NCBI GenBank assembly: GCA_018899555.1 | Contig: JAHIHZ010000011.1 | Span: forward strand, 1 to 51,831 | DNA length: 51,831 bases | Direction of reading: 5' to 3' | DNA from: Patescibacteria group bacterium | GTDB taxonomy: Bacteria > Patescibacteriota > Minisyncoccia > Phycocordibacterales > 21-14-all-36-13 | Shown: piece by piece, positions 4,630 through 10,137 of the stretch | Numbering within the stretch: the first letter of the stretch is position 1 | Layout of the letters: every line of letters starts with the position of its first letter | Made by a program: the position numbers and the translations under genes | Notes under the pieces: generated by a model | What the model saw: only the letters and a program-made list of their open reading frames with translations | The model's database searches: none | Told to the model about the DNA's origin: nothing

Positions 4630-5349
4630 TTAAACTTTGCTTTTTGAAACCACAACAACAAATTCTCCTTTTATTTTATCCTCGTTTTCGTTAAAATATT
4701 TTAAAATTTCTTCTGGGTTTCCAGATACAATTTGTTCATAAATTTTTGTTAATTCACGAGCTAAAACAATTTTACATTCATTGCCCAAATGCAGTTTTAA
4801 AGATTCTAATGTTTTTATAATTCTATGTGGCGATTCATAAAACACAACTGTTCTTTCCGATTCAGCGATTTCCTTAAATAAAGTTTCTCTGCCTTTTTTG
4901 TGCGGTAAAAATCCTAAAAATAAAAAATCTGATGCTGGTACGCCTGCACCAGAGAGAGCTGTTATGACAGCACTTGCTCCGGGAATAGGAATTATTTGTA
5001 TGCTGTCTCCAAATTTTTCTTTAATTTTAGAAACAAGAAACGAGCCTGGGTCTGAAATACATGGCGTTCCTGCATCAGAAATAAGCGCTAAAGTTTTTCC
5101 ACTTTCAATTTCCTTAAAAATCGTTTGTAATTTGTGATTTGTGTTTTGTGATTTGGAGCGTCCTGATTTTGGATTATCTGCGGGATAACTTAAAAGTGGT
5201 GTCTTTATCTCGTACTTGTCTAATAACCTTCTGCTGACTCGTGTATCTTCACACAAAATCAAATCAATCTCTTTTAAAATCCGCAGAGCGCGCAGGGTTA
5301 TATCCTCTAAATTTCCTATTGGTGTAGCTACTATATAAAATTTATTCAT
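4630..5349 (-). CDS. rsmI: 16S rRNA (cytidine1402-2'-O)-methyltransferase RsmI
   Basis: N-terminus FYIVATPIGNLEDITLRALRILKEIDLILCEDTR plus SDAGTPCISDPG are the tetrapyrrole-methylase-fold RsmI signature. Carries an in-frame repeat-derived insert at 5123-5156. Confidence 0.9.
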   Translation of the reverse strand: MNKFYIVATPIGNLEDITLRALRILKEIDLILCEDTRVSRRLLDKYEIKTPLLSYPADNPKSGRSKSQNTNHKLQTIFKEIESGKTLALISDAGTPCISDPGSFLVSKIKEKFGDSIQIIPIPGASAVITALSGAGVPASDFLFLGFLPHKKGRETLFKEIAESERTVVFYESPHRIIKTLESLKLHLGNECKIVLARELTKIYEQIVSGNPEEILKYFNENEDKIKGEFVVVVSKSKV

Positions 5350-6136: not shown

Positions 6137-6344
6137 AAAATAACAATAAAAATATATCAAAAAACTCGCTACAAGGCGAATTTTATAACAAATTATTATT
6201 TATTTAAAAACACAAAAACCACCATTGTGGCGGTTTTTAATTTTTTTGCAATTTGGAATTTGCAATTTGTGATTTGTGATTTGTGATTTGTGATTTGGAA
6301 TTTTCAAGTTTAAAAACTTTGTTTTTAAACTTGATATTACCCTC

Positions 6345-6625: not shown

Positions 6626-7583
6626 CGCATTACACAATGATTTCAATATATGTCAATAGTGTATGCACACCACTGGGCAAGCAGTTTTCCTGCACCCTAG
6701 CGGTTTCCATAGGTTTTCGCTTTTTTCCCTCTCTTCCTAATCTCATCACGAAGTCTAACAATTTTATTAAAACCCCTGTCTGTAAGATGTTCTTTTTTAG
6801 ACATCATTAAAACAATTTTTTTAAAAATTTTATAAACTTCCGCTTTTTTGGCTTGTAATGGATTTTTATCAAGAAAAGGGAAAAGTTTCGTTGTTAAATC
6901 TTTTAAATTATTTATCTTATATTTTGAATGAGGAAACCATCCATATCTATCATAAGACAGATCATAAATTCTTCCACACCCAATTGTTATAAGAATTCTC
7001 TCTAAAATTTTTTGATCATCGGCACGAAGTTCTATTTCAAATTCCGGTCGAATTTCAAATCTTCTTTTAAGAGTTTTATGTTTCCCTATGCTTATAGAAA
7101 AAGATCCCTCTCCGTCTATAAAACCAGAAACATAATTTGGATTTAATTTTTTCCTATGAATTTGTTCCTTCCCAATTGGTTTTTTTAACTTCTTGGTACT
7201 ATGAACTCTGCTGACTTCTTGCATAACATTTAAAAAAGATTGCTCTTTTATATACCTCGATGTTATCACACACCGAGGATTATGCAAGATCTCCTGTGGT
7301 AACTATATAGACCATTTGTTTTCATCTCGATATCACTACACGCAATATGTTTACTTTGACACAGTAGGCTTCTCCATATACTCGCAGGATGACCTACATA
7401 TTGCGCCACAGACTGATATTCAAGCTAAAAACTGCTAATTTCTCCCTTCACTGAATTTCCTCACGGAAAACAGCTGAGATTTCGCTTCAAAACACTGTGA
7501 CTTATTTTGGCCTGATTTCCAAAAACTTTTTTTAAAAAAGAAGTTGGGCACAGACTGGCTTATATAATCGCACAGCGACCCGA
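6626..7583 (-). mobile_element. 958-nt intron-like insertion in 16S between E. coli C1395 and A1396, carrying a LAGLIDADG gene; ribozyme class not assignable by eye
   Basis: Exon sequence GCCTTGTAC stops at 7584 and resumes as ATACCGCCCGTCAACTC at 6625. Joining the two restores the universal CCUUGUACA(C/U)ACCGCCCGUC. The insertion ends in G. The group I core motif seen in the other introns is absent. Confidence 0.7.
6697..7287 (-). CDS. LAGLIDADG homing endonuclease (single-motif type)
   Basis: Contains YVSGFIDGEGSFSISI. About 190 aa, located inside the rRNA insertion. Confidence 0.8.
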   Translation of the reverse strand: MHNPRCVITSRYIKEQSFLNVMQEVSRVHSTKKLKKPIGKEQIHRKKLNPNYVSGFIDGEGSFSISIGKHKTLKRRFEIRPEFEIELRADDQKILERILITIGCGRIYDLSYDRYGWFPHSKYKINNLKDLTTKLFPFLDKNPLQAKKAEVYKIFKKIVLMMSKKEHLTDRGFNKIVRLRDEIRKRGKKAKTYGNR

Positions 7584-7615
7584 GTACAAGGCTCGAGAAC
7601 GTATTCACCGCAGTA

Positions 7616-7651
<36 letters not shown>

Positions 7652-7804
7652 GGGTCGAGTTGCAGACCCCAATCCGAACTAGGACCGATTTTTAGGATTG
7701 GCTCAGGATTGCTCCGTCGCGACCTATTGTATCGGCCATTGTATTACGTGTGTAGCCCAGGGCATCAAAGGGACATGCTGACCTGGCGTCATCCTCTCCT
7801 TCCT

Positions 7805-7885
7805 CCCCTCCCTAAAAGAATTTTCAAACAAGAAGTTCGGCTTCTCAAGAGGAAGCCAAACTTCGAAAATTCACTTAGGGAGGGG
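7805..7885 (-). other. expanded 16S helix (about E. coli 1160-1175 region)
   Basis: CCCCTCCCTAAG ... CTTAGGGAGGGG encloses a second hairpin (GTTTGGCTTCCTCTTGAGAAGCCGAAC). E. coli has only about 15 nt at this position. Confidence 0.6.
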
Positions 7886-8235
7886 CAGTCTCGTCTGAAA
7901 TTTATAACAGACAACAAGGGTTGCGTTCGTTTCCCTACTTAAAGGAACAGCTCAAGCCACGAACTGACGACGGCCATGCATCACCTGCCTATCCGTTAAG
8001 ATTTTCTGTTTCTAGAAAAACATAAGATAGGTTTCAAGCCCTGGTGAGGTTCTTCGGTTAGTATCGAATTAAACCACATAATCCACCGCTTGTGCGAGCC
8101 CCCGTCTATTTCTTTGAGTTTTAACCTTGCGATCGTACTACCCAGGCGGTTCTCTTAATGCGTTAGCTTCGCCTCTCAGAGGGTCGATACTCCGAAAAGC
8201 TAGAGAACAACGTTTACGGCGTGGACTACAGGGGT

Positions 8236-8795
8236 CACTTTTGTTACGAAGTAACAAAAAAATTAAAAATGTAAAAATCAAAATGAAAAATTACAATTTA
8301 AAATTCAAAAGTTACCGGATACAACATTTCTGTGTATCTCTCTATGTCGCCATAGAGGTCGGACTATATCTTCACCCGGCACTTTCTGAAAGTGCTGGGG
8401 TTTGGCATGTAGTCTCTGAGGAGCCTTGCGTGCTATAAAATGCGGGCAACAGCACCTTTAACACACAAGTTTCCTGCTGATTGTCTGCATCGGTTTGAGA
8501 TTGTTACTATAATATATCAATAGTACTCGAACATTCGCAGAGTTTCCAGCATATAGCCAAATTACAATCTACTGTTGCCAGTAGAAGAGACACTGTTCGC
8601 ATTCTCTCACCTACTTGAGTGAGCATTTTCTTTTTTAAAACATATGCAGGAGATGAAATAAAAATCAAGGAGTCGCATAGGAAAATGAAACTGTTTGAGT
8701 CCTGCAAGGCAGGATGAGTTTTTCATTTTCCGTCATAAGACGATTATGATTTTTTTCATCGAAACATCGTTTTGAAAAAGAAGATGCGAACGTTT
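8236..8795 (-). mobile_element. group I intron in the 16S 790 loop (between U793 and A794), no ORF
   Basis: Splicing restores GGAUUAGAU|ACCCCUGUAGUCC. Core elements CCTCAGAGACTAC (P7 5' side) and GAAGATATAGTCCGAC (J8/7-P7', compare Tetrahymena AAGAUAUAGUCGGACC) are present at 8345-8425. The last intron nt is G and the last 5' exon nt is U. Confidence 0.8.
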
Positions 8796-9111
8796 ATCTA
8801 ATCCCTTTCGCTCCCCACGCTTTCGTGTTTCAGTGTCAGGAAATGTGCTAGTTTATTGCCTTCGCTTTTGGTGTTCCCCATAATATCAACGGATTTCACC
8901 CCTACACTATGAGTTCCATAAACCCCTCACACCCTCTAGTTGTACCGTTTCTTTTGCAGTTCTTCGGTTGAGCCGAATGTTTTAACAAAAGACTAATACA
9001 ACCACCTACACACCCTTTACGCCCAATGATTCCGGATAACGCTTGGGGCCTCTGTATTACCGCTCCTGCTGGCACAGAGTTAGGAGCCCCTTATTCATGA
9101 TCTGATGTCAA

Positions 9112-9230
9112 TCGCTCCGCGATTCCCACGCGGATAAACGCAGACAACAATGCGGATAGACGCGGATAAAAAATATCTGCGAAAATCTGCAAAAATATCT
9201 GCGAAAATCTGCGAAGAAATCGCAAAGCGA
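9112..9230 (-). repeat. V3-region expansion of 16S built from ATCTGCG/ATCCGCG-type repeats
   Basis: About 120 nt lie between ...GATTGAAGAAG and TTGACATCAGATCATG... The segment consists of tcgcagattttcgcagatatttttgcagattttcgcagat... and tatccgcgtctatccgc... Confidence 0.65.
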
Positions 9231-9466
9231 CTTCTTCAATCATAAAAGATCTTTACGTCCCTAAGGACTTCATCAATCACGCGATGTCGCTCCGTCAGGC
9301 TTTCGCCCATTGCGGAAGATTCTCGACTGCTGCCACCCGTAGGTGTATGGACCGTGTCGCAGTTCCACCGGTGGAGGTCAGGCTCTCACCTCTCCTAGAC
9401 GTCATAGCCTTGGTAAGCTTTTACCTTACCAACTAGCTGATATCCCGCAGGCCGATCCCAAAGCGC

Positions 9467-9518
9467 CCAGCACATATTTTGATTTTTGAACAATTTCAAA
9501 AATCAAAATATGTGCTGG
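9467..9518 (-). repeat. 52-nt near-perfect hairpin inside 16S V2
   Basis: CCAGCACATATTTTGATTTTTGAA-loop-TTCAAAAATCAAAATATGTGCTGG. Confidence 0.7.
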
Positions 9519-9532
9519 ACTTTACTCAACAC

Positions 9533-9825
9533 TTTTTTTATTTTACAAGAGATTCTTTAATTCGCTTTTTTATATATGTTCGAGCATTGCCATAATGTTT
9601 TAATCCTTTCTCCCGAGCTCTTGCATCTTCTTCGGATCTATATGATTCGCAATATACCAAAATCCACGGTATTCCAAATTTAGTTGATTGATTTATTCCA
9701 TCATTATGATGTTTAAGTCTCTCGGATAAATTTGTTGTAAATCCGAAATATAAATCTTTCGTTTTTTTGCTTTGAATCACATACACCGTATAAAGTTTCA
9801 TGAAGCTAATTATAAAATAAAAAAA
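9533..9825 (-). mobile_element. 293-nt insertion in a 16S V2 hairpin loop consisting almost only of a GIY-YIG ORF
   Basis: Bounded by an 8-bp inverted repeat, CTCAACAC (9525-9532) and GTGTTGAG (9826-9833). No group I core is visible. Confidence 0.65.
9538..9801 (-). CDS. GIY-YIG nuclease domain protein (87 aa)
   Basis: The N-terminus YTVYVIQSKKTKDLYFGFTTNLSERLKHHN is the GIY...YIG/R/E pattern of GIY-YIG domains. Confidence 0.8.
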   Translation of the reverse strand: MKLYTVYVIQSKKTKDLYFGFTTNLSERLKHHNDGINQSTKFGIPWILVYCESYRSEEDARAREKGLKHYGNARTYIKKRIKESLVK

Positions 9826-9925
9826 GTGTTGAGACTATCAGGTATTATCCCGCCTTTCGACGGATTATCCCTGACTTTGGGGGTCGTTCCTACGTGTTAC
9901 TACCTCGTTTGCCATGTTTTCTCGT

Positions 9926-10064
9926 CTACGGCGAGAACGCTGATGTTCGCAGATGGGGCTCGCTTGCGCTCGCCTTCGCAGATGTTCGCTGATATTTAAA
10001 AATTATATCTGCGTTAATCTGCGTTTTTTATCTGCGTTAATCTGCGGTCTTGTCGTAGACAAGA
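9926..10064 (-). repeat. 139-nt module expanding 16S helix 6 (V1); near-identical copy inside 23S (49169-49366)
   Basis: CTACGGCGAGAACGCTGATGTTCGCAGATGGGGCTCGCTTGCGCTCGCCTTCGCAGATGTTCGCTGATATTTAAAAATTATATCTGCGTTAATCTGCG... ...GGTCTTGTCGTAGACAAGA is shared with the 23S copy. Confidence 0.85.
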
Positions 10065-10137
10065 TACATTCGACTTGCATGCCTAATCCACATCGCCAGC
10101 GTTCATCCTGAGCTAGAATCAAACTCTAACTTAAAAA

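Follow-up and report, generated by a model that had tools for sequence, protein, structure and literature searches.

The window analysed here, a whole stretch of 51,831 nt from contig JAHIHZ010000011.1 of a Patescibacteria group genome (assembly of 625 kb in 33 contigs, 33% G+C), carries on its minus strand an intact rsmI gene. The product of this ORF matched the equivalog model TIGR00096 with 243.1 bits against a cut-off of 167.9 (E 3.6e-72), the Pfam TP_methylase family PF00590 (E 2e-32) and, using HMMER, the E. coli RsmI structure PDB 5hw4 (E 4e-51). In an alignment of 54 sequences it kept all invariant columns, and the PIGN, EDTR and SDAGTP motifs of the SAM and RNA sites are invariant in that alignment. 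An AlphaFold2 model made with an input of 54 sequences (mean pLDDT 83) showed the tetrapyrrole-methylase fold, with TM values of 0.85-0.90 against 5hw4 and 9pzg. The features discussed below are the following.

4630..5349, minus strand: rsmI, 16S rRNA (cytidine1402-2'-O)-methyltransferase, 239 aa (matches to TIGR00096, PF00590 and PDB 5hw4)
5123..5157, minus strand: five heptads, TCCAAAT CACAAAA CACAAAT CACAAAT TACAAAC, coding S65-T76 (the last loop residue and the first ~3 turns of helix α3)
5158..5184, minus strand: loop extension codons P56-R64 (PADNPKSGR), which with S65 make +10 aa; non-heptad DNA, predicted disordered
5265..5296, minus strand: second mosaic patch in rsmI, codons 18-29; 16 of its 32 nt differ from the 98%-identical sister strains
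6213..6239, minus strand: terminator-like hairpin, directly after the array of the next line
6244..6306, minus strand: nearest intergenic heptad array and candidate template, 8-9 units in the spacer from 16S to tRNA-Ile

The C-terminal three-helix domain is absent from this RsmI, as the TIGR00096 match covers model positions 2-222 of 275 and the protein stops at residue 239. The Paceibacteria RsmI homologues P0002-P0120 (about 224-253 aa) likewise do not have it. E. coli RsmI requires this domain for h23b binding and for activity (PMC13037946).

The initial annotation had described a CACAAAT-family repeat that is translated inside an intact RsmI, and this description was borne out. The minus-strand sequence of 5123-5157 is TCCAAATCACAAAACACAAATCACAAATTACAAAC, in which Tandem Repeats Finder detected (at 5124-5155) a period of 7 with 4.6 copies and 88% matches, although only two of the units are perfect tandem copies. 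The string previously given for 5123-5156 is correct; it starts one base later than the tract. Translation of ORF 4630..5349 confirmed that the tract, read as S65 K S Q N T N H K L Q T76, lies between the conserved N-terminal PIGN/EDTR blocks and SDAGTP without breaking the frame. When the surrounding 90-nt region was compared with the genome by BLAST, similarity to other loci was restricted to the 34-nt heptad part. The array cited earlier for comparison exists (at 6244-6299) and shares 32/34 bases with the tract at 6266-6299, while a second copy at 5495-5525 of contig C9 is identical at 30/31 bases. Scored against NNCAAAT x5, the tract reaches 23/25 in the present genome and 24/25 in the sister strains. 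In 25 other rsmI genes the best windows score 13-16/25 and none of them coincides with the position of the tract.

Could this likeness be due to composition? According to such an account, an A-rich helix start coding for Lys, Asn, Gln and Ser would only resemble the repeat. The native sequence is indeed A-rich and holds one unit, and by hand count the orthologous 35 nt of P0002 agree with the consensus at 19/35 positions. However, the other rsmI genes remain at or below 16/25, shuffles of the whole genome gave no array, and the tract is identical to intergenic copies at 30/31 and 32/34 bases. Since the tract is 94-97% identical to the intergenic copies and 55-67% identical to orthologous coding DNA, convergence by point mutation is not credible and we consider that the sequence was copied from a template; chance resemblance can be given hardly any weight.

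The tract belongs to a family that is dispersed through intergenic as well as coding DNA, its coding copies being those in rsmI and leuS. In the window, CACAAATCACAAAT with at most 2 mismatches was found 13 times against 1.3 expected, a count reached in 0 of 100 shuffles. Genome-wide, 36 arrays match (NNCAAAT)x4 at 18 or more of the 20 specified positions and local-composition shuffles (n=5) gave 0. All except three of the arrays (33/36) lie outside ORFs of at least 150 aa, which occupy 70% of the genome. In this count we treated as intergenic a 7-unit array at 5091-5139 of contig C1, inside a 264-aa ORF, because it falls within the first 21-37 codons and the true start probably lies downstream of it. 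That array (minus strand) contains a perfect (CACAAAT)x6, placed where a methyltransferase ORF is extended at its 5' side, and is flanked by the recurring modules ...CCCCATACCATTCGCTTCGCAAAGCTACGGGGCA and TTATCCCGTAGCCAACTTGTTGTGGTACTGGGACAA, the latter identical at three loci; the loci noted are this one, C4 6391 and C13 3155. The family is sparse in three genomes of the same genus (3, 0 and 2 strict pattern matches against 17 here) and is almost missing from 17 other families of the order.

The intergenic copies are parts of a larger element. A 28-nt module, TCCAAACCACAAATTCCAAATTACAAAC, is identical at four loci and is typically followed by AATATCTAAATTCTAA... and then by an ATTTG-rich inverted arm, the full element forming a long imperfect hairpin with z of -4 to -5.6 relative to shuffles. 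Of the 33 intergenic arrays, 17 have a candidate start codon on the opposite strand at a distance of 6-27 nt, so that ATTTGGA-type units stand directly upstream of ATG, for example at C17 3893-3927, C4 10243-10277 and C9 3401-3435. Near 5123-5157, by comparison, no ATTTG partner arm was found; the inverted repeats there do not rise above noise, and the minimum-free-energy fold leaves the tract unpaired. A pair of inverted repeats flanking the variable segment (5099-5111 and 5187-5199, 85% complementary) was set aside as noise, since three other pairs in 300 nt are equally good.

The nearest array, 6244-6306, shares the strand of the rsmI tract, from which it lies 1.1 kb upstream, and consists of TCCAAAT (CACAAAT)x4 TGCAAAT TCCAAAT TGCAAAA. 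The neighbouring 16S rRNA gene (7537-10134) holds a group I intron at 8340-8618. Closely downstream of this gene there is a LAGLIDADG endonuclease ORF (6697-7287) together with a group II intron D1-D4 match at 7165-7254 (minus strand).

The initial annotation had raised the idea that the segment is an insertion in the protein, and only a part of this proposal stood. At this place the present RsmI exceeds that of 25 relatives, three of them from the same genus at 75-78% identity, and that of E. coli by 10 aa, the gap of the relatives at the DNA level being 30 nt. However, the extra residues lie upstream of the repeat-coded K66-T76 according to MAFFT, HMMER and AlphaFold2. In MAFFT they are PADNPKSGRS, and KSQNTNHKLQT is aligned with the genus-standard HSQSKLSKIDK. 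HMMER against 5hw4 pairs SQNTNHKLQTIFKEI with DHNEQQKAETLLAKL and leaves over ADNPKSGRSK. In the AlphaFold2 model residues 57-68 are disordered (pLDDT <50) and helix α3 spans 66-82. In this model the extension is a disordered loop, and the repeat-coded residues form the first turns of helix α3, which all orthologues have. The repeat-coded peptide itself is not an inserted segment: it is collinear with the native HSQSKLSKIDK at the start of that helix, pairs with native residues one-to-one, and adds nothing to the length of RsmI, the +10 aa being upstream.

This collinearity is drawn mainly from equal length, from anchor residues and from the fold model, the DNA being A-rich and the column identity being the 55-67% given above. 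The native HSQKINPTIQKVL of P0002 and the present KSQNTNHKLQTIF are both 13 aa long, and their DNA is identical at 20/30 positions by a hand column count. The residues kept by the tract are S67-Q68 (native TCA CAA, itself one repeat unit), K73 and I77, and the last two are almost invariant across the RsmI family. A compensated frameshift was considered and rejected, as neither of the remaining frames of the 75-nt segment resembles native HSQSKLSKIDKILDL and one of them has a stop.

The loop extension can be followed in other lineages. Among the 120 best RsmI homologues, the standard β3-α3 loop is 15 aa (YHSQSK...), and at least 8 scattered lineages have Y-P-[SAF]-D extensions, with loops of 17-34 aa (2 to 19 extra residues). 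Examples are PSDNLKPGADKSNPKVEKIF, PSDDIVGKNNSQSNKLVKIF, PFDKLRTSHSQKINPTIQKVL (P0002) and PSDSLRAGHSPAKSSKIDKIL (P0011), with further variants in P0015, P0016, P0104 and P0113. PADNPKSG of the present genome equals PSDNLKPG at 5/8 positions. The initial annotation had held that its proposal would be refuted if orthologues free of the DNA repeat had an equally long, similar peptide, and this is largely what we observed: P0002, P0011, P0014, P0015, P0016 and others have similarly long P-[SAF]-D peptides, and in the three orthologues whose loop DNA was read (P0002, P0011 and P0014) heptad periodicity is missing. The extended-loop proteins do not form one clade and are scattered in a loop-masked FastTree tree and in pairwise identities, an informal comparison; P0002, which is extended, and P0008, with a standard loop, are 90% identical outside the loop. 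This scatter and this identity suggest that the extension of the RNA-contact loop has been gained, lost or laterally exchanged more than once. Outside the loop, the present RsmI is at most 82% identical to any protein beyond its own cluster. The insertion of P0002 resembles a small hairpin at C17 34495, with 2 weak matches genome-wide, and was discarded as a sign of a repeat family.

Did the extension and the heptads arrive together? In the manner of a Rickettsia palindromic element (RPE), a single piece of ~61 nt (CCGCAGAT... plus the five heptads) may have replaced ~31 native nt and brought in the heptads together with the +10 aa. The present species is the only one of the genus clade that has both the +30 nt and the heptads, and these adjoin each other; moreover, the LeuRS gene described below shows that in-frame insertion of heptad-rich DNA is possible in the genus. 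The upstream part also holds one CGCAGAT unit (5176-5182, minus strand, in the codons of P-A-D-N) of the abundant ATCTGCG family, which has 238 copies genome-wide. This unit is possibly a coincidence, since orthologues code PSDN as CCA TCC GAT AAT, which is 2-3 changes away. A composite insertion would be betrayed by an intergenic copy in which CCGCAGATAATCCAAAATCAGGACGC is joined to heptads. Searches with blastn-short and fuzzy matching, however, gave no second copy of the 26-nt extension DNA, and thus no possible donor, in the genome. PADNPKSG also resembles PSDNLKPG, PSDSLRAG and PFDKLRTS of orthologues with heptad-free DNA, and the one-to-one pairing of heptad-coded with native helix residues also speaks against this reading. 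We consider a single event unlikely.

Instead, we are inclined, with moderate confidence, towards a separate loop extension and a length-neutral overwrite by a heptad copy through template switching, tolerated at an RNA-facing edge. On this reading the protein has, as have many Paceibacteria RsmI proteins, a Y-P-x-D-N...G-type extension, PADNPKSGRS, unconnected with the repeat. Directly beside it, ~23-35 nt of native codons after the extension would have been overwritten by an NNCAAAT heptad copy with length unchanged. The ancestral codons at the start of helix α3 were presumably ...CAY TCA CAA AGT AAA TTA TCA AAA ATT GAT AAA..., in which the native TCACAAA, being one repeat unit, could have primed a replication template switch or a short ectopic conversion. 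These two mechanisms are favoured because the tract is exactly as long as the native helix start. The template may have been a heptad array such as 6244-6306, on the same strand and 1.1 kb away, and the return point would lie at ...CAAA(T/C)G ATT TT. It is likely that the product survived because the CAAAT strand is free of stops, because length and frame were kept, because S-Q, Lys73 and Ile77 were retained by chance, and because the solvent- and RNA-facing edge is permissive. As to the stops, (CACAAAT)n reads H-K-S-Q-I-T-N in all three frames with none, whereas the reverse strand has TGA.

The sister strains bear on the donor. Two of them, independent assemblies with a protein 98% identical to ours, have TCCAAAT CACAAAA CACAAAT CACAAAT TGCAAAT, then G. 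Once one CACAAAT unit is dropped from array 6244-6306, this allele agrees with it at 34/35 bases, including the rare CACAAAT TGCAAAT junction; CAAATTGCAAAT occurs at 3 sites in the genome, and this array is the only one of them within a heptad array. A sister-strain contig ends within the same intergenic array. Since two intergenic copies match the rsmI tract equally well, array 6244-6306 is a candidate donor only. None of the compared genomes falls between 82% and 98% identity to the present one, and with this gap more than one order and number of events on the lineage would fit.

A local origin was weighed as well, in which the Ser-Gln codons of the native TCACAAA seed expanded in situ through slippage, the length and frame being regained by compensating deletions, with no other locus involved. 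TCACAAA is kept in the genus orthologues (CAC TCA CAA A), and according to the literature summarised in PMC4679880 no class of repeat slips more readily than heptamers. Against such an expansion, the tract has variant end units in the order of the family, opening (5') with TCCAAAT and closing (3') with TACAAAC or TGCAAAT, and TCCAAAT sits upstream of the seed. Several compensating indels would be needed as well, and the near-identical proteins of the RsmI cluster, five in number and drawn from several sources, show no length variation, all being 239 aa. Local slippage thus appears quite improbable to us.

A related idea is that the heptads form a contingency tract that switches rsmI on and off, gain or loss of 7 nt shifting the frame. 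The unit is not a multiple of 3, and heptanucleotide tracts do drive phase variation in some pathogens (e.g. HMW1A). However, rsmI is a housekeeping gene, the tract has two perfect units only, and neither the five 239-aa cluster proteins nor the two sister-strain alleles gave any sign of phase variation. These alleles are equal in tract length, and the only differences within the tract are a T/M replacement and a synonymous TTA to TTG change. A switch of this kind is very improbable.

The leuS copy offers a parallel. LeuRS carries, after its CxxC motif, a heptad-rich in-frame insertion of ~35 aa (KKRVGNSKFQIPNSKKIPNSKLQIQNQEFNKGELLNP; NSKFQIPNSKKIPNSKLQIQNQ...) at 14960-15110 of contig C1 (minus strand). 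The insertion is common to the present genome and 2 of the 3 same-genus genomes; the third lacks it, as do 7 genomes from other families of the order. At its beginning the native codons just before it are repeated as a perfect 16-nt inverted copy, which forms an 18-bp hairpin, and TCCAAAT heptads follow. Read from its sequence, this inverted copy is a template-switch signature, and the structure of the insertion makes template switching plausible in the present lineage. The QINADNK/GADNK stretches of LeuRS look as if coded by the CGCAGAT family.

Rickettsia palindromic elements are the closest known system of in-frame repeats. They are palindromic units of ~150 bp that add 30-50 residues (Ogata et al. 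2000, as far as cited in PMC10969869). The heptad family is like them in being dispersed, mostly intergenic and also found in frame in housekeeping genes at fold-compatible surface sites, as far as RPEs are treated in PMC10969869, and LeuRS is a good parallel. In contrast, the rsmI copy is 35 nt long, a single arm with no inverted partner, and adds zero residues. It thus shows neither the residue gain nor the palindrome of RPEs, while LeuRS does gain residues and the intergenic copies form long hairpins. We saw no conserved peptide domain encoded by the element, nor any target-site duplication or transposition machinery. In-frame repeat families such as RPEs are already known (PMC10969869), and what is specific to the present case is a length-neutral overwrite that adjoins an unconnected loop extension.

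Heptanucleotide repeats have been described elsewhere, as TAACTGA in marine Beggiatoaceae (PMC4679880) and as GGGAATC/GGGGATT in Xanthomonas and Nostoc (PMC4692102). The present family shares with these, and with the cyanobacterial STRR repeats, 7-nt units in tandem arrays of 3-9 copies, variant units and an overwhelmingly intergenic location. Like the TAACTGA repeats, for which a role in translation initiation has been proposed (PMC4679880), many of its arrays (the 17/33 noted above) lie a few nt upstream of a start codon. It differs in its unit, NNCAAAT / ATTTGNN, and in that its arrays are modules of long imperfect hairpins. For the Beggiatoa genome, PMC4679880 describes a few ORF-internal repeat sets in reverse orientation and reports no in-frame replacement of conserved protein segments.

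What might the altered site do? The protein has the same fold as E. coli RsmI (5HW4; 30S complex 9PZG, PMC13037946), with 42% identity and the PIGN, EDTR and SDAGTP motifs, and differs in being without the C-terminal domain and the H-x-H motif and in having +10 loop residues. The E. coli counterpart of the altered site is the H66-DHNE-K73 loop and helix start, which touches C1400/G1401. Within the RsmI-30S complex of E. coli, H68 of this loop contacts C1400/G1401 along with D45, T46 and R47 (PMC13037946), and substitution of H68 alone did not significantly reduce activity (PMC13037946). Given this contact and the harmless substitution, the site of the tract is RNA-facing but permissive, and in our analysis the rsmI patch, which is small, is probably neutral. 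A bolder proposal would be that NNCAAAT is an actively propagating template-switch repeat that rewrites essential genes of this ultra-small bacterium besides inserting into them, and that the rsmI patch and the basic extended loop have been co-opted as a new 16S h44 contact aiding substrate recognition by an RsmI without its C-terminal domain. We find this very doubtful.

The overwrite favoured here opens up the possibility that repeat DNA finds its way into an essential gene of a streamlined CPR genome through the replacement of codons, besides adding a loop as in the Rickettsia model. An overwrite of this type leaves no length signature and would be missed by insertion-based screens. The β3-α3 loop of RsmI, which touches C1400/G1401 beside the methylation target, would in turn be an evolutionary hot spot in a clade without the C-terminal domain on which 30S recognition depends in E. 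coli.

The second mosaic patch, at codons 18-29, is found only in the present genome, while the two 98%-identical sister strains keep the genus-typical sequence. It changes LRAIRTLKEVN to LRALRILKEID by way of the GC-rich codons CTG CGC GCT CTG CGG. A donor was not found within the present genome. The peptide LRALRILKE is present in other lineages (P0011 and P0016), so that the patch more likely came in by recombination with a short piece of a foreign allele.
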